Positions 80-64,000 of a stretch of 64,000 bases of DNA are shown here, in pieces. Made by a program: the position numbers and the translations under genes. The DNA is from a virus. The stretch's first letter is position 1; each line of letters starts with the position of its first letter. The stretch is taken from positions 1 through 64,000 of the IMG/VR virus record IMGVR_UViG_3300046804_001245; one strand, given 5' to 3'. The notes under the pieces are model-generated. The model searched no databases. It saw only the letters and a list, made by a program, of their open reading frames with translations, and was not told the DNA's origin.

Positions 80-1399
80 ATGAATATTGAGAAATCTCTA
101 TGGTCATCAAATGGCGACAATATCAATTTGTCGGTGCCATTCACAAAAGTCAATCGTGAAAAGCGCACCGTTTCTGGTTTTGCTACGCTAGATAATCTTG
201 ATCAAACAGGAGATGTAGTTACAGCAGATGCATCATTAAAAGCATTCGAATCTTTCCGTGGAAACATTCGTGAAATGCATGGATCAAATGCTGTTGGCAA
301 GATGGTTTCATTCAAGCCAGAAACATACTATGATCCAGAATCAAAAGAATTTTACAATGGCGTTTATGTTGATGCATATATTTCAAAAGGTGCACAAGAT
401 ACATGGGAAAAGATTTTGGACGGAACTCTACAAGGATTCTCAATCGGCGGAAAGATTATTGATTCAGAAAATGAAGTCAATAAGTCAACAGGTAAGCCAG
501 TAAGATTTATTAAAGAGTATGCATTGATGGAGCTATCAGTTGTAGATTCTCCAGCAAATGAGCTATGCAACATCTTGTCAATTCAGAAGATGAATGGACA
601 ATTAATGTTTAAAGGAATTGCAGCAGAAACAAAAGTAGAGAATATTTTTTATTGTGAAGACAGTGATTCTGTATTCATGTCCACAGACACAGAATATGTA
701 TCACCAGTCTCTGGTAAGCCAGCAACTTTGATCGGTTGGGTAGAATCAAATGATACAAACAAAGCAAAGGAAATAGATAGAATTCTTGATTTACACAAGT
801 CAAGATTAACGTTGCCTGATACAAACAAAATTGCAAAACAGGCAAACGCAGAAGGAGGTAATGAAGTGTCAGAAAACACAGAAACATTGGCAGCAGTCGA
901 AGAGACTCCTGTCGTTGATGCAGCACCTGCTGAAGAAGCAGCTCCTGCCGAAGATGCAGCACCTGCTGAAGAAGCAGCGCCTGCTGAAGACGCTTCTGCC
1001 GAAACTCTGGAAAAAGCAGCCGACGTATCAGAAGTTGAGGTTGATGAACCTGATTTTGCAAAGATGCTTGGCGATCTAAAAGGCTTTTTCTCAGAAACTC
1101 TAAATAAGGCATCAGAAGCAAATGCTGCTCAAGTTACAGCTATTAAAGACACAGTTGAAACTTTCAGCAAGAGCGTTGATGGACGAATTTCAGAATTGGC
1201 AGAACAACATGCAGCACTTTCAAAGGCTGTAGAAGATATCAAGAACACGATTGATGGCGTAGAAAAGCGTGTCGGTGCGGTAGAATCAGAGACCGCAGTT
1301 AAGAAGTCCTCAGACCTTGGCGGGTCTCAGGAAGTAACAATAAAGAAATCAAAATGGAACGGTTCTTTCCTCGGTTCCGTGAATGAACTTTTAAAATAA
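80..1399 (+). CDS. prohead (capsid maturation) protease, HK97 family, fused to C-terminal scaffold region
   Basis: VSGFAT..D..GD, REMH, GFSIGG, ELSVVDSPAN motifs; acidic/coiled-coil C-terminus; precedes major capsid gene. Confidence 0.88.
   Translation: MNIEKSLWSSNGDNINLSVPFTKVNREKRTVSGFATLDNLDQTGDVVTADASLKAFESFRGNIREMHGSNAVGKMVSFKPETYYDPESKEFYNGVYVDAYISKGAQDTWEKILDGTLQGFSIGGKIIDSENEVNKSTGKPVRFIKEYALMELSVVDSPANELCNILSIQKMNGQLMFKGIAAETKVENIFYCEDSDSVFMSTDTEYVSPVSGKPATLIGWVESNDTNKAKEIDRILDLHKSRLTLPDTNKIAKQANAEGGNEVSENTETLAAVEETPVVDAAPAEEAAPAEDAAPAEEAAPAEDASAETLEKAADVSEVEVDEPDFAKMLGDLKGFFSETLNKASEANAAQVTAIKDTVETFSKSVDGRISELAEQHAALSKAVEDIKNTIDGVEKRVGAVESETAVKKSSDLGGSQEVTIKKSKWNGSFLGSVNELLK
866..1399 (+). 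CDS. nested in-frame scaffolding protein (internal GTG start)
   Basis: AAGGAGGT at 852-859, 6 nt before in-frame GTG 866; product is Ala/Glu-rich then coiled-coil. Confidence 0.6.
   Translation: MSENTETLAAVEETPVVDAAPAEEAAPAEDAAPAEEAAPAEDASAETLEKAADVSEVEVDEPDFAKMLGDLKGFFSETLNKASEANAAQVTAIKDTVETFSKSVDGRISELAEQHAALSKAVEDIKNTIDGVEKRVGAVESETAVKKSSDLGGSQEVTIKKSKWNGSFLGSVNELLK
920..1003 (+). repeat. 18-bp tandem coding repeat (AAPAEE/D x4-5)
   Basis: gcagcacctgctgaagaa-type units. Confidence 0.85.
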
Positions 1400-2490: not shown

Positions 2491-2525
2491 GAAAGGCCCC
2501 CATTAATTTGGGGGCTTTTCCTTTT
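2491..2525 (+). terminator. intrinsic terminator
   Basis: GAAAGGCCCCCA-TTAATT-TGGGGGCTTTTC followed by CTTTT. Confidence 0.85.
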
Positions 2526-2570
2526 AATTGACTAATGCTATAATTAAATAACCTATAAAAGGAGAAATTA

Positions 2571-2969
2571 ATGTCATTTGATACATTAAAAGTTGCAGAG
2601 TTAAAGCAGATTGCGGAAGACTTTGCAGTAGACGTAACAGACCAAAAAGGTAAAAAAGATATTATTGCTGCACTCGCAGAAGAAGGCGTAACCTGGGCCA
2701 TCTATAAAAAGGCCAAGGGCATAGAGGAAGAAGAAGAAGAGATGAATGCTGCTGAATTGAAAAAGCCAGAAGCAAAACAGGTCAAACAAGAAGACTTAGT
2801 TCTAGTTAAAATGACTCGTGCTAACTTTAGATACGATATTCTAGGACACACATTTACAAAAGAACACCCATTCGTTGCTATGGACAAAGATACAGCCCAG
2901 GCAATTTTTGATAAGGAGGAAGGTTTTGTTATGGCTACTCCAAAAGAAGTTCAGGAGTTCTATAACTAA
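2571..2969 (+). CDS. head-associated protein with N-terminal Rho-N/HeH-like motif
   Basis: LKVAELKQIA...KKDII motif; extended -10 TGCTATAAT at 2536 and AGGAG SD. Confidence 0.55.
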   Translation: MSFDTLKVAELKQIAEDFAVDVTDQKGKKDIIAALAEEGVTWAIYKKAKGIEEEEEEMNAAELKKPEAKQVKQEDLVLVKMTRANFRYDILGHTFTKEHPFVAMDKDTAQAIFDKEEGFVMATPKEVQEFYN

Positions 2970-2978
2970 GCCAATTAA

Positions 2979-3968
2979 ATGGCAGAGGTTTATAAGAATA
3001 GTTACGCACCAGCAAAGACTAAAATATTCTGGGGCGGACAAATAGTAGATGCAGATGGATCAGTCCTAGTAGATATCTATGATATAACTCAGGATCCAGC
3101 AGTAACACCTGCAATAAGCCCGTCTACTCCAGTCGCAACAAATGTTGTTGCAGCAAAGTCAGAAGTAGATCCTGGCTCATACGAAATTGGTATTCCTTTT
3201 GCCTTAACAGATAGAAATAAAAATCTTAAATTAAGATGGAAATATGCGATAAGCTCTTCAAATGTCAGCCATGATACTTTTGTAGACGTTGTAACGCCAT
3301 ATGCTTCAATATCCGAAGCAGTAGAAGATTTAGGAATAGCGGTAGATCCAGCAGACCCAAACTATAAGTCATATCATGAACTTATAATGGCAGAGAAGTA
3401 TGCACGTAAAGTAATTGAAAATCATACAGGTCAGCAATTTTATTTGTACGATGATGTTCAAATAGCATATGGCGCAGGCTCAGACTTGCTACCGCTTCCA
3501 TTTAAATTAGATACATTACATGAGCTTTATGGAAATGACATTTTGCTTGTTGATAATATCAATAATGAAAATAACTGGATATTTGATCCGCTTGTTTCTG
3601 AAACTGGTTTTGGTCTAAGAGTAGACAGAAGTCAAGCTCTAGACAATACTGTATATATTGCGAATGGTATGGTACCTCCAACAATTAATGATAATTTTGG
3701 ATACGGAGCATTTAGAAAAGATGTTCGCTATAAAGTCGCTGGCAAATTTGGATGGGCGGAAGTTCCAGACAATGTTGAGCAAGCATGCATTCAATTGATG
3801 GGCGATTACTTTGCAAAAGATAAAGTATGGACCAACAAATATGTTAAAAGCGTTTCTACATTCGACTGGGATTTTGAGTATTCATCAGATGCCTATAAAG
3901 GAACAGGTAACGCCTATGCAGACCAACTATTATACCCATATGTGCTTACCACTATGGTTGTAATATGA
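2979..3968 (+). CDS. head-to-tail adaptor
   Basis: TPYAS, A..VIENHTGQQF, G.FGW..VPDNVEQA, ADQLLYPY; position after capsid. Confidence 0.7.
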   Translation: MAEVYKNSYAPAKTKIFWGGQIVDADGSVLVDIYDITQDPAVTPAISPSTPVATNVVAAKSEVDPGSYEIGIPFALTDRNKNLKLRWKYAISSSNVSHDTFVDVVTPYASISEAVEDLGIAVDPADPNYKSYHELIMAEKYARKVIENHTGQQFYLYDDVQIAYGAGSDLLPLPFKLDTLHELYGNDILLVDNINNENNWIFDPLVSETGFGLRVDRSQALDNTVYIANGMVPPTINDNFGYGAFRKDVRYKVAGKFGWAEVPDNVEQACIQLMGDYFAKDKVWTNKYVKSVSTFDWDFEYSSDAYKGTGNAYADQLLYPYVLTTMVVI

Positions 3969-57567: not shown

Positions 57568-57825
57568 CTAGTCGGATATGTCCGATTTGTCCACTACGAT
57601 AATATCATTAGACATGGATGGATATCCATCTTCTAACAAATCTGTTGTATCTCCTTCAAGCTCGTTATCTACATAATGAACCTGAATTGTAGAATCAGTT
57701 TCTATTTGGATCCAAGAATGTGTTGCGGCATTGGAGGCAATATCCCATGCCTCCTCCGCATTTGCCGCTTCCACATCAATATAGTATTCAATTAGTTTAT
57801 CTCCGAAGACTCTATGCTTGCTCAT
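57568..57825 (-). CDS. hypothetical acidic protein
   Basis: VEAANAEEA motif. Confidence 0.6.
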   Translation of the reverse strand: MSKHRVFGDKLIEYYIDVEAANAEEAWDIASNAATHSWIQIETDSTIQVHYVDNELEGDTTDLLEDGYPSMSNDIIVVDKSDISD

Positions 57826-58213
57826 TTAGCCACCCGTCCTCATCCAGGGATACAAGGAAGTCGTTATCCCTCATCCAATCTCTGATTACCTCTTCCAGGA
57901 TTTCGCCGCCGTGGTCCATATTAATACCAAGACCGTCGACATCATCCCAGAACTTATCCCAGATTTGTTTAAGAGTTACGCCAGTTGGCACAGCCTCGTC
58001 AACATAGTCATTAACAGCAAGGTCTTCATACTTACAATTGTCGTAGATGTCCTTGATTATATCAAATGTCCATGCCCACAACAATGAGGGAAATGCGGCA
58101 ACATCAGACAATAATCTGTTAATCTCCAGCATTTGATTGTATACGTCGTCCCTACGTGTTTGGTCCTGTAGATCTAATTGTGCTTTATGCACATCTAATG
58201 ATTCAATTTGCAT
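57812..58213 (-). CDS. hypothetical protein
   Basis: AACGAAAGGA SD gives ATG 58213. Confidence 0.6.
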   Translation of the reverse strand: MQIESLDVHKAQLDLQDQTRRDDVYNQMLEINRLLSDVAAFPSLLWAWTFDIIKDIYDNCKYEDLAVNDYVDEAVPTGVTLKQIWDKFWDDVDGLGINMDHGGEILEEVIRDWMRDNDFLVSLDEDGWLNEQA

Positions 58214-58481
58214 TCTTGGTCCTTTCGTTAATTGCAAATGCTAATGCATATGTCATTTGGTAAATATGTGTGAGAGCGTCCATTTGGCCCTCCCAGTATT
58301 TCCGCTCCATAGATTCCATGGCGTCGGAATAATCATTCTCTTCCTCAATACGCTGTGCTTCCTCCAGTTCACGCTCTGCGTCTAGCATGAGGACCTTTAG
58401 GTGCCCGTGCAAGATATCGGTGCCAGAAGACCCAGCGTCGACCTGCTTCTGCAGATATGGGTCCAGTTCTAATGTGTTCAT
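58203..58481 (-). CDS. hypothetical protein
   Basis: YWEGQMDAL; GGAGG SD. Confidence 0.6.
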   Translation of the reverse strand: MNTLELDPYLQKQVDAGSSGTDILHGHLKVLMLDAERELEEAQRIEEENDYSDAMESMERKYWEGQMDALTHIYQMTYALAFAINERTKNAN

Positions 58482-58773: not shown

Positions 58774-58998
58774 TTACACATTGAAGTAGAATTCATCTCC
58801 CTCATTTAAATTATAAAACTCATTGAATTTATTCTTCAGCAAAGGGTCATCATACAATTGGATTAATTTCCAATCTGCATACATGGTTCCCTCATCTAAA
58901 TTGGACTGATTAAATTGGTCAAACAGTTCCATTGCTACAGCATGAATAATTTCACCTGTATCTGCTTCAGTCATATCGTCAAATACCGAGTGTTGCAT
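58774..58998 (-). CDS. hypothetical protein
   Basis: TAATG-coupled. Confidence 0.55.
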   Translation of the reverse strand: MQHSVFDDMTEADTGEIIHAVAMELFDQFNQSNLDEGTMYADWKLIQLYDDPLLKNKFNEFYNLNEGDEFYFNV

Positions 58999-59771
58999 TA
59001 TGCTTTCTCCATTCTATATTCAGGTACGTGGTCGGAATCCAAGTATACTTTATGGGTCTGACATTCTTTGACATTATCTAGGTCTGCCTCCCCAAGCCAA
59101 TTACAAGCAGAGCAGATTTCTCCACAATCATTATCGCAATATTCCATTGTATTATCTGAATCACAATCACGACATTTGTTCTCATACTCTGAGATAGATA
59201 TAACTTCTCCACGAAGTAATTCCATTTCTCCGCCCCAACCTGTTTCTTCCTCATAAGATAGAGTTAGCAATAAACTAGGATATTGTGCAGATAATTTTTG
59301 GAGGGCAGGAACAGGAGGAGACCAAGCAGTATTAAAGTTATAATAAACTACTAAGTTCTCTCCATTTTCAGTAGGCCCTTCCATATATGTATCTGAATAT
59401 TCTTTATTATCAGATATAGCCACATCCCATTTTGTTCCCCAATTAGTTATATTCCATGAATACCAAGACTTATCTTCTAATCTAAGTTTTTCAGTATCAT
59501 TCCACCAATTAGGGTCAGATACATCTAATTCAGAACGAGTTGGTTGTGCAACATATTCTAAATCAGTTATACCTGCTTGGCGGTGGTTATAGATATTATA
59601 AAAAGCAAAGACAGGATTAGGATATGTAGTCTGAGATACTTCCATATTTCCAGTAGTTTTATTCCATGAATCATGTAACATGACGAATGGTTTATTCATT
59701 TGTTTTACAAGGTCATTTACCAATTCAGGAGAACCTTCAATTGTAAGACCGTTATAGCACCAATTTGGCAT
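58998..59771 (-). CDS. DUF1281/YubB ferredoxin-like domain protein with Cys-rich tail
   Basis: MPNWC, WY.W...WGTKWD, FNTAWSPP; start 59771 by SD. Confidence 0.72.
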   Translation of the reverse strand: MPNWCYNGLTIEGSPELVNDLVKQMNKPFVMLHDSWNKTTGNMEVSQTTYPNPVFAFYNIYNHRQAGITDLEYVAQPTRSELDVSDPNWWNDTEKLRLEDKSWYSWNITNWGTKWDVAISDNKEYSDTYMEGPTENGENLVVYYNFNTAWSPPVPALQKLSAQYPSLLLTLSYEEETGWGGEMELLRGEVISISEYENKCRDCDSDNTMEYCDNDCGEICSACNWLGEADLDNVKECQTHKVYLDSDHVPEYRMEKA

Positions 59772-59803
59772 TATATATTCCTTTCGTTCGGTTGAATGGT
59801 CCA

Positions 59804-59833: not shown

Positions 59834-59902
59834 TATCCCCCAAGTTTCGGGAAATTACATTAGATCTCGTAACAGAGCTATATGGTCCTCAGGCATGCGG
59901 GC

Positions 59903-59935
59903 AAAAGCAAATCCCCCAGGAACCAACTGGGGGAT
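59903..59935 (-). terminator. intrinsic terminator
   Basis: ATCCCCCAG/CTGGGGGAT then TTGCTTTT on - strand. Confidence 0.75.
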
Positions 59936-59943
59936 ATTGACAC

Positions 59944-60026
59944 GTAGGGCTGCTAGTCAAACGAAAGGAATTAAGTAAACACTGCTTTACTTAGCGACTT
60001 GGGGAATCCCTATAGCCGCACCCTAC
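59944..60026 (-). ncRNA. candidate anti-RBS small RNA
   Basis: GUAGGG/CCCUAC closing stem, AGUC/GACU, UAAGUAAA/UUUACUUA hairpin, unpaired AUUCCUUUCGUU. Confidence 0.55.
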
Positions 60027-60054
60027 ATTTAAATGGGCCTAAGCCGTAGATTAA

Positions 60055-60459
60055 TTATACCAGAAGAGGGACGTCGGTATATTTCTCTACGAATGTGCGT
60101 AGGTCCATTACGAAGAGGGGCTCATTGCTCATACCACGAACCTTGTTGTCCAAGTTATAGAATGAATCCTCTGTATGAAGACTAAAAGTCATTTGTGTAA
60201 AGTCGACGATAGCAATCTTGTGCTCGTTATCGCCAATCTCATTTACATGCAGGCCCCATCCAGTCTCCATAGACCAACCGTCGCCAATCATATGACTGAT
60301 TGCGATACGTGTTGCATATGAAGGGTCCGACCAACGAGGCTGTGCTTTTGCAACCGCCTCTGCTAAATTGGCAAGCATGTTGTGGCCCGCCCAGTGTCCA
60401 TACAGTACAATTGTGTTACCGTTCGGCTGTACAAATCCGAAGTTTGCTCTGTCACCCAT
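60055..60459 (-). CDS. hypothetical protein MGDR...LY.HW.G
   Basis: Coupled ORF with SD. Confidence 0.65.
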   Translation of the reverse strand: MGDRANFGFVQPNGNTIVLYGHWAGHNMLANLAEAVAKAQPRWSDPSYATRIAISHMIGDGWSMETGWGLHVNEIGDNEHKIAIVDFTQMTFSLHTEDSFYNLDNKVRGMSNEPLFVMDLRTFVEKYTDVPLLV

Positions 60460-60807: not shown

Positions 60808-61017
60808 TTACCTCCTGTAGCCTGTTGGCTGGTAATCTGTCTCCACTAGTATATCCAATTTATACTTAGATATCAAGGCTGAAACTTTTTCAATATTTCC
60901 CGTCCCAATATCAAATACAGTTGAATCTATCCAATATGGATCTAATCCAGCGAATTCAGCGTCCCAATATGCCGCTTTGAGGGCGGCAGTATTAGGAGCA
61001 CGTAGTTGATAATACAT
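60808..61017 (-). CDS. hypothetical protein
   Basis: TAATG-coupled. Confidence 0.55.
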   Translation of the reverse strand: MYYQLRAPNTAALKAAYWDAEFAGLDPYWIDSTVFDIGTGNIEKVSALISKYKLDILVETDYQPTGYRR

Positions 61018-61571
61018 TAGTTCCAGTCCTGACTATCAACTAAATCAATATCCCATGAATCTACTTCGGTAGTAAAATCATTTGAGTCGACTGAAAGATT
61101 GTCAGAGAGATGATAACGAATATCAAAGTCATTAACTTCGGTAATATCTACCTCAGTACTTCCTGATACTGTAAGAGTTACAGTCCAGTTCATTGTTTGT
61201 TTTGGCTCATGGTCAAGGATTACACAAAGGTCACGAAGAACCTCTTCCTTGTCGACTGTATCTGAGAACCAACTATCAATAGTTAAATTATCGATAATCT
61301 GACCGATTTGTTTTTCTTGTGATTCAAGACGGGCATCACGATATTGTGCTTTTCTAAACATCTCGCTGATGTCTGCACGATTTAGAGTCCATTCTCTAAG
61401 TTCGCCATTTGGCAAGTGTTCATATGCTTTGATTGTTGGATTAGCGAAGAGCAAATCCTCCAATTCAGTTGCTTTATATAGTTTATAGATACTGTCATTT
61501 GATTCTGGCTGAATTTCACGAACAGTAGTTAATGCATGAGGATTATATGAATCCTGCGATACTATTTCCAT
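61017..61571 (-). CDS. hypothetical acidic protein
   Basis: Start reassigned to ATG 61571 (AACGAAAGGAA SD); longer ORF would run through the tRNA. Confidence 0.65.
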   Translation of the reverse strand: MEIVSQDSYNPHALTTVREIQPESNDSIYKLYKATELEDLLFANPTIKAYEHLPNGELREWTLNRADISEMFRKAQYRDARLESQEKQIGQIIDNLTIDSWFSDTVDKEEVLRDLCVILDHEPKQTMNWTVTLTVSGSTEVDITEVNDFDIRYHLSDNLSVDSNDFTTEVDSWDIDLVDSQDWN

Positions 61572-61598
61572 TTGTTTCCTTTCGTTGTTATTGACCGT

Positions 61599-61620
61599 AT
61601 TATAGCGGACCTGACTGACA
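61599..61620 (-). promoter_or_regulatory. early promoter TGTCAG-N10-TATAAT
   Basis: Same motif spacing as at 59804, 62839, 63826. Confidence 0.65.
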
Positions 61621-61686
61621 AAATCCAGGGGTCCCGCCCCTTTGTCGTAACAATCTTTTTTGGATTTCACGTATGCGGGCGAGCTG

Positions 61687-61761
61687 CGACCCATACCAGA
61701 TTTGAACTGGTGATCTCCACCGTGACAAGGTGGCGCTTTAACCATGCTAAGCCAATGGGCC
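61687..61761 (-). tRNA. tRNA-Asp(GTC); CCA not encoded
   Basis: GGCCCAT/ATGGGTC acceptor, CCACC-TTGTCAC-GGTGG anticodon arm, ACCAG-TTCAAAT-CTGGT T arm, G discriminator. Confidence 0.92.
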
Positions 61762-61767
61762 AATAGG

Positions 61768-61785
61768 GGGCCCCTTGCGGGGCCC
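61768..61785 (-). other. GNRA-capped hairpin just 5' of tRNA-Asp
   Basis: GGGCCCC-GCAA-GGGGCCC. Confidence 0.6.
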
Positions 61786-61793
61786 GTCATTCT

Positions 61794-63831: not shown

Positions 63832-63978
63832 TCACCACATACCGACAGCGAATTCGGCAACAGTATCTAGACATTCGGCGCATGCCCAATCATCGCCATA
63901 GACTTCGTATTCTGCCTCATCGACAAAATAGGTGGCAGTACCACAGATTTCATAGTATAAACAATTTACTTTTATCAT
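63832..63978 (-). CDS. small Zn-ribbon protein (not in ORF track)
   Basis: AACGAAAGGG SD; C...CG...CAEC, 48 aa. Confidence 0.55.
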   Translation of the reverse strand: MIKVNCLYYEICGTATYFVDEAEYEVYGDDWACAECLDTVAEFAVGMW

Positions 63979-64000
63979 TTAGTTTCCCTTTCGTTATGCG

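Follow-up and report, generated by a model that had tools for sequence, protein, structure and literature searches.

The question raised by this locus is what a short non-coding segment, lying among small genes on the minus strand of a large phage genome, might do for the phage that carries it. The window analysed, a stretch of 64,000 nt, begins at the first nucleotide of a virus record that is 106,882 bp long and bears direct terminal repeats; in this record plus-strand genes extend up to ~56 kb and are followed by a minus-strand block of small genes running from 56.5 to ~69 kb. A sequence-only reading had proposed that one segment of this block encodes a small RNA presenting a loop complementary to the ribosome-binding sites (RBSs) of several phage genes. 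Comparison with related loci upheld the substance of that interpretation, namely a discrete RNA gene with a conserved structure, an invariant seed and a shared, conserved leader, but two details of the proposed fold proved to be either wrong or specific to one clade. The segment is almost certainly the core of a conserved non-coding RNA gene that is both functional and structured; as judged from sequence, it is on balance probable that this gene specifies a trans-acting base-pairing sRNA that represses the leader-sharing genes of the ~107-kb phage.

The position originally described was confirmed (Table 1): the segment is encoded on the minus strand, flanked by the stop codon of the gene at 60055-60459 and a terminator. 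A promoter of its own and a 5' hairpin (P0), both absent from the earlier description, were recognised by comparison of related loci. The predicted transcription start lies near 60047 on the minus strand, and the corresponding extended -10 box (TGnTATAAT) recurs ~27-39 nt 5' of helix P1 in ~90 of the 125 non-redundant related loci examined. It falls within the upstream reading frame in some loci and after the stop codon in others, so that coding constraint offers no explanation for its conservation. Some 25 of the 125 loci have no promoter box, and there the RNA begins directly after the upstream stop codon, perhaps as a product of the upstream mRNA. The P0 stem measures 5-7 bp in relatives, its pairing being kept through differing stems (AGGCC/GGCCU, AGGACC/GGUCCU, AGGUCC/GGACCU), while 107 of 122 non-redundant loci have a GC-rich terminator-like hairpin plus T-run after P1, the hairpins amounting to 87 different sequences. 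Taken together, the positions of promoter, P0 and terminator predict an RNA of roughly 145 nt extending from ~60047 to ~59903. The short non-coding unit is hence bounded by its own promoter and an intrinsic terminator, as is expected of a trans-encoded sRNA, the evidence for both being their conservation in sequence. Also as described, the terminator and a new promoter (TGTCGG-N10-TATAAT before the next gene) separate the element from the nearest candidate target.

Table 1. Positions of the RNA gene, its structural elements, candidate target leaders and neighbouring genes (window coordinates, except for the two distant-lineage loci).
Feature	Position	Strand	Remark
Extended -10 promoter TGgTATAAT	60054-60062	-	overlaps last codons and stop of upstream gene
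P0, 5' hairpin GGC-UUAG-GCC	60036-60045	-	begins ~5 nt past promoter box
Core three-way junction	59944-60026	-	covariance model, covariation
P1	60026-60020 with 59950-59944	-	
P2	60019-60014 with 59999-59994	-	encloses hairpin P3
P3, hairpin inside P2	60010-60001	-	
Invariant junction UAAGUAAA	59993-59986	-	
P4 closing pairs, GC with GC	59985-59984 with 59953-59952	-	
Seed AUUCCUUUCGUU	59960-59971	-	P4 apical loop
Invariant 8-mer CUUUCGUU within seed	59967-59960	-	
Intrinsic terminator, 9-bp stem then UUUGCUUUU	59903-59935	-	stem-loop 59935-59911, T-run to ~59903
Candidate target leader AACGAAAGGAAU of DUF1281_C gene	59777-59788	-	12/12 nt complementary to seed
Candidate target leader, gene 61017-61571	61576-61586	-	11 nt complementary; first gene of operon ending at RNA
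Candidate target leader, gene 57812-58213	58220-58229	-	10 nt complementary
Candidate target leader, small gene starting near 63978	63987-63995	-	9 nt complementary
134-aa gene, phrog_31860	60055-60459	-	constant neighbour 5' of RNA
DUF1281_C gene	58998-59771	-	neighbour of RNA element
DUF7455 gene			neighbour of RNA element
DUF932 gene			neighbour of RNA element
GP88-like gene			neighbour of RNA element
tRNA-Asp (GTC) gene	61686-61761	-	
134-aa homologue plus RNA gene, distant lineage (L209)	2501-3197		
134-aa homologue plus RNA gene, distant lineage (L210)	701-1395		

Folding of the segment of ~83 nt, which had been put forward as structured, gave a minimum free energy (MFE) of -27.2 kcal/mol (z -2.4), with a z of -3.0 once the terminator was included. 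The consensus fold obtained from 52 distinct sequences consists of P1 (7 bp, 4 pairs covarying), P2 (6 bp, 3 pairs altered on both sides) and a third arm, P4, closed by two invariant G-C pairs. In this alignment 96.3% of the cells concerned were paired, and the covariation score of 0.401 compared with 0.120 for shuffled alignments (0/500 reached it) and with at most 0.072 when the partners were slid. With 95 distinct sequences the corresponding values were 95.7% and 0.407, as against 0.121 in shuffles, and the comparison across related phage contigs that had been recommended as a check hence returned two strongly covarying helices (0.41 versus 0.12 when rounded). P3 and the inner part of P4 vary in length, with pairing retained through many different sequences, P4 alone occurring in 51 distinct versions with compensating stems. 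P1 has an invariant U-G pair at its base, which identifies the minus strand as the one transcribed.

Of the individual helices proposed beforehand, the closing stem GUAGGG(U)/(G)CCCUAC was confirmed and shows covariation. The inner AGUC/GACU stem found no support, AGUCGC being paired instead with GCGGCU as helix P2 (three covarying pairs), and the 8-bp hairpin UAAGUAAA/UUUACUUA forms in the window's own clade but not in most relatives: the 5' arm coincides with the invariant junction UAAnUAA, and most of them lack a 3' arm or have one with mismatches. Together with the GC/GC pairs, the motifs GGUGC, UAAnUAA and AGCAGCC are invariant across the 95 sequences, a degree of conservation at the junction that exceeds the needs of a plain antisense RNA and points to a bound partner or an additional role.

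A search with the upstream protein yielded 80 related IMG/VR loci and an independent scan with an RNA-only pattern at least 120 IMG/VR stretches; combined, the two gave at least 199 loci and, among the matches listed, 95 distinct element sequences. The RNA is thus carried by more than 120 IMG/VR phage contigs, at one copy per contig. The covariance model built from the element (R1), the E-values of which are rough, gave exactly one match, of 56-83 bits, in each of 95/95 sources (820 kb). A second match in the genome under study (66317-66347, E 0.115) was rejected as the antisense of a leader. In bacterial genomes the RNA was found on three MAG contigs of ~3 kb only (L204, L207, L208), which bear full-scoring copies and had been binned as Bacteroidia, Polynucleobacter and an unnamed bacterium; these are most likely mis-binned phage DNA, and the bins consequently give no reliable hint of the host. 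The Colwellia and Oscillospiraceae matches, two of the five obtained with the pattern in bacterial genomes, were dismissed as chance (17-19 bits, broken helices).

Rfam searches of both 8 kb and 181 nt, with E up to 10 and permissive filters, gave no family match at the element, and none was obtained with the ribozymes, riboswitches or tmRNA of that database. The C4 covariance model likewise failed to match under the same limits (E up to 10, 8 kb and 181 nt). The RNA constitutes a previously undescribed family, outside Rfam and outside the C4 family, and could enter RNA family databases as it stands: its boundaries are clear, its helices covary strongly, and seed and target motif are equally invariant. 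Three weak Rfam matches (RAGATH-25, P9 and ctRNA_pGA1) sit on the terminator, far below threshold, and were discarded. Several other identities were also considered and abandoned. ARAGORN and Rfam find no tmRNA here, there being no tag reading frame, T-arm or CCA end, and across the whole genome ARAGORN reported tRNA-Met and tRNA-Asp only. A looser tRNA- or tmRNA-like reading was dropped given that P1 and P2 stack without a break on the 5' strand, with no T-loop and no CCA end, as was that of CUA-GCA-GCC as the Leu-Ala-Ala end of a tag, the first codon of which varies among relatives with no stop codon after it. Mimicry of the 16S rRNA 3' domain (GGUGCGGCU) was set aside because the bases concerned covary freely. 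A riboswitch or cis-regulatory leader was discounted on the grounds that the terminator and the TGTCGG-N10-TATAAT promoter precede the next gene and that no riboswitch model matches.

The whole of AUUCCUUUCGUU is unpaired in the MFE fold, as claimed at the outset, and the mean unpaired probability of CUUUCGUU in the window RNA is 0.73. Across 102 sequences the mean for CUUUCGUU was 0.66, compared with 0.42 for the whole RNA, and exceeded 0.5 in 89% of them. A loop that varied among relatives, or that was predicted to be paired, had been named as evidence that would count against the proposal; CUUUCGUU is invariant and predicted to be accessible. The corresponding CTTTCGTT occurs in 79/79 complete loci, as an invariant alignment column in an element ~60-120 nt past the upstream gene; one locus (L046) has an extra copy elsewhere. 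In all versions of P4 CUUUCGUU is apical, and several clades have a UUCGUU loop there that is closed by one U-G and one C-G pair. The UUCG of the seed fits the YUNR U-turn pattern, which is known from antisense recognition loops. An altered form of CUUUCGUU, CUAACGUU, represents a designed seed mutant.

Complementarity to the seed was present at all four RBSs for which it had been reported (Table 1), and seven further matching leaders, which the sequence-only reading did not include, were located just past the window at 64.2-67.5 kb. It was also correct that the 12-mer on the plus strand is not followed by a start codon. Within the window AACGAAAGG occurs 5 times as against 0.37 expected (0/100 shuffles reached 5). 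Throughout the genome the minus strand has 8 copies, each of them at a start site in the interval 58-67.3 kb, and the plus strand a single one, within the RNA gene. The same asymmetry was evident in 134 non-redundant loci (1.08 Mb), where AACGAAAG was recorded 547 times on the strand of the RNA as compared with 16 expected, with an ATG 2-14 nt (mostly 7-9 nt) 3' of it at 528 of the 547 sites; the 138 copies on the other strand amount to about one per locus and are essentially the RNA gene itself. Such a conserved, accessible seed complementary to conserved translation initiation sites is a hallmark by which trans-encoded sRNAs are recognised.

The genes concerned form an island with its own promoters and its own class of RBS. 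Twenty promoter-like sites of the form TGTCRG-N10-TAnnnT were found in the island (57295-64025, on to 69041), all on the minus strand and each a short distance 5' of a small gene; one more, at 81442 (+), is probably a chance occurrence. Contiguous complementarity to the seed extends over 9-13 nt in 11 of the 20 island leaders, and over 8 nt in three more. The RBSs of the island take the form (A)ACGAAAGGAA after a near G-free stretch (e.g. 59788, 61586, 65229 -) and constitute a class of their own, since plus-strand genes use AAGGAG/GGAGG instead (e.g. 2571, 5781, 41941 +), a distinction by which gene classes in these phages could readily be separated at the translational level. The usual 16S rRNA 3' end reads ...CCUCCUUUCU, with which the AAC prefix of the island RBS does not pair, yet that prefix is complementary to the RNA. 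Leaders of the AACGAAAGGAA type were taken as the RNA's candidate targets. The invariant core is just 8 nt long, many leaders pair over 8-9 nt only, and a genome-wide duplex scan was noisy: leaders accounted for 5 of the 40 best windows, so that pairing energy alone does not pick them out.

Some co-variation of loop and leaders, which the sequence-only reading had suggested as a check, was detected in the bases flanking the core. Complementarity past the 8-nt core averaged 1.40 nt with the leaders of the same phage, compared with 1.14 nt (sd 0.043) after RNAs had been swapped between phages. Where the RNA has a C before the core, the leader has a G after it at 93% of sites, as against 66-70% in other clades; where the RNA has a G after the core, the leader has a C before it at 44% of sites; and in clades with an A before the core the leader base after the core never pairs. 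This flank signal is real but modest, and the shuffle z-scores are inflated by kinship among the sequences. The gene directly downstream was matched no better than distant genes (1.21 versus 1.40 nt), a result that favours action in trans on many targets over a dedicated target in cis.

Gene anatomy, conservation, helix covariation, predicted loop accessibility and the joint invariance of loop and leader were all established by computation; the synthesis of the RNA, its pairing with leaders, repression as the outcome and the timing of its action are what we infer. According to the proposed mechanism, an RNA of ~145 nt would be transcribed from its own extended -10 promoter, would end at the intrinsic terminator, and would adopt a fold in which a 5' hairpin precedes a three-way junction; the loop CUUUCGUU (AUUCCUUUCGUU here) would be displayed on the third of the junction's arms. 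The pairing partner of this loop would be the leader AACGAAAGG(AA), situated 7-9 nt 5' of the start codon in the promoter-proximal gene of many transcription units driven by TGTCRG-N10-TAnnnT promoters; the putative target genes are those of the minus-strand island at 57-69 kb. Within the leader, pairing would mask the Shine-Dalgarno sequence GAAAGGA and also the AAC 5' of it, a triplet predicted to lie beyond the reach of the 16S rRNA 3' end. Binding of the 30S subunit would be blocked, very short leaders might be exposed to decay, and translation of the whole leader-sharing set would be lowered at once, plus-strand genes with AAGGAG/GGAGG sites being spared. The RNA would itself be made from a different promoter type than that of its targets.

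The gene immediately 5' of the RNA bears on alternative explanations. In 192/198 loci among the matches listed, including those found with the RNA pattern only, a gene for a homologue of the 134-aa protein is followed by the RNA at a distance of 0-110 nt. The protein is highly conserved (motifs GDRANF, YGHW, RWxDxSYATRI, GWG and DNEH) and has a confident predicted fold (pLDDT 86). It was assigned to no Pfam family and by PHROGs to an unnamed family only, a search of its fold gave no Foldseek match at E up to 0.001 and a best VIA-align Z of 3.6, and the protein atlas placed it in unnamed viral clusters only. In the Streptomyces phages StarPlatinum and Karimac a homologue of the 134-aa gene is followed ~20 nt on by a bona fide tmRNA (tag ANSNVASAYALAA), so that two distant lineages of actinophages now connect this protein family with RNA genes. 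The Gordonia phage Yvonnetastic has no annotated RNA gene after its homologue. In three related contigs (L012-L014, ~3415-3435) the tblastn alignment of the 134-aa product was 33 nt longer than at the remaining loci, running through one stop codon, and the extended part overlaps the first bases of the P1 helix.

It is accordingly conceivable, though we consider it unlikely, that the structured RNA has another main job, whether in a complex with the 134-aa protein or a host factor, as a ribozyme or as a ligand sensor, and that complementarity to leaders is secondary, serving for instance in docking or targeting. The invariant junction motifs, which exceed what a scaffold for the seed would need, the near-constant adjacency to the same gene, and the recurrence of a pairing of this gene with an RNA gene in the distant tmRNA-bearing lineage are all consistent with such a job; against it, no Rfam model, those of ribozymes, riboswitches and tmRNA included, matched the element, the 134-aa protein has no recognisable RNA-binding or other known fold, R1 does not match Streptomyces tmRNA (at most 7.5 bits on the StarPlatinum locus, the tmRNA itself being unmatched), and the joint invariance of loop and leader would be left unexplained. 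Less probable again, in our estimation, is action in cis within longer transcripts, by pairing either with the 5' leader of the RNA's own operon (61576-61586) or, after read-through of the terminator, with the RBS of the next gene (59777-59788). The operon terminating at the RNA does begin with an 11-nt match, the next gene offers a 12/12 match, the motif occurs at the next gene within 400 nt in 113/154 loci, and the ~25/125 loci that have no separate promoter box would fit this arrangement. Most loci, however, have a conserved dedicated promoter and terminator, the next gene is driven by a separate promoter, downstream sites are matched no better than distant ones, and the motif is present at no fewer than 8 dispersed leaders per genome.

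A further alternative, which we find scarcely credible, is that a regulatory protein uses AACGAAAGG as its operator in the DNA and that the RNA gene simply contains one operator more. It draws on the presence of the motif shortly downstream of many promoters, but the distance of the motif is constant to the ATG and ranges from 11 to 19 nt to the -10 box, which argues for a role at the RNA level; moreover, the 547 sites share one orientation, the opposite orientation being confined to the RNA gene, where the copy lies in the loop of a covarying hairpin. The base-pairing sRNA acting in trans remains the reading that we prefer. An extension of it, offered tentatively and at rather less than an even prospect, is that this 'anti-leader' RNA governs a promoter-and-leader regulon of about a dozen units with one promoter type and one extended leader, and that it may work with the 134-aa protein.

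Comparison with known regulators places the proposal in context. Phage T4 encodes RegA, a translational repressor protein, and RegB, an endoribonuclease that cuts GGAG in early Shine-Dalgarno sites. The logic would be the same here, one phage product turning down many phage mRNAs at their RBSs; RegA and RegB are proteins, whereas the agent proposed here is an RNA that would read a shared leader by base pairing and, if the proposal is true, would be their RNA counterpart. The RNA and the 134-aa protein would then constitute a translation-targeting module. To our knowledge, no small RNA of a lytic or uncultured phage is known to control a set of the phage's own genes via a shared leader, and few have a known role. 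Among bacterial sRNAs, RsaE/RoxS of Firmicutes is a multi-target sRNA with a pyrimidine-rich seed aimed at Shine-Dalgarno sites. The 6C sRNA of Actinobacteria uses C/U-rich unpaired loops to pair with the purine-rich RBSs of several mRNAs without Hfq (PMC6486639). The seed is of the same type in the RNA described here, but sequence and fold differ from both, with no Rfam match; it is, moreover, phage-encoded, its candidate targets are the phage's own genes, and the leader extends past the Shine-Dalgarno site.

The analogy with P1 c4 and P4 CI drawn in the sequence-only reading holds for mechanism only, the Rfam searches having given no match. In c4, a structured phage RNA, a single-stranded loop pairs in trans at or near the RBS of an mRNA and blocks expression (PMC12197685), and the likeness of the P1/P7 c4 and P4 CI RNAs to the present one consists in the loop bases of a small structured phage RNA being aimed at an RBS. 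The former have two seeds, whereas a single conserved seed is found here; they act on one target downstream on the same transcript, in contrast to many dispersed candidate targets over ~10 kb with separate promoters; and they are processed from a precursor, unlike the present RNA with its own conserved promoter and terminator. They also serve immunity in temperate elements, while the phage studied here is a large one with terminal repeats and an actinobacterium as its probable host. The tmRNA genes of StarPlatinum and Karimac, finally, resemble the RNA gene in occupying the same genomic slot.

The cultured-phage homologues of the 134-aa protein are restricted to phages of Actinobacteria (34 Streptomyces, 3 Gordonia, 1 Nocardia and 1 'Actinomycetia'), and the carriers of the RNA are a family of uncultured freshwater phages that probably infect actinobacteria. 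Comparison of the DNA with cultured phages gave no match except for the tRNA, the tRNA-Asp gene being ~80% identical to the tRNA region of Synechococcus phage S-PM2. This gene falls within a mechanically called ORF (61017-61790), the true gene start of which is the ATG at 61571, after the leader at 61586. The motif GCCCGCA, with GTTACG ~22 nt further on, lies 3' of both the RNA terminator (59868-59902) and the tRNA-Asp gene (61646-61680) on the minus strand, and GCCCnCA follows the terminator in 113/122 related loci.
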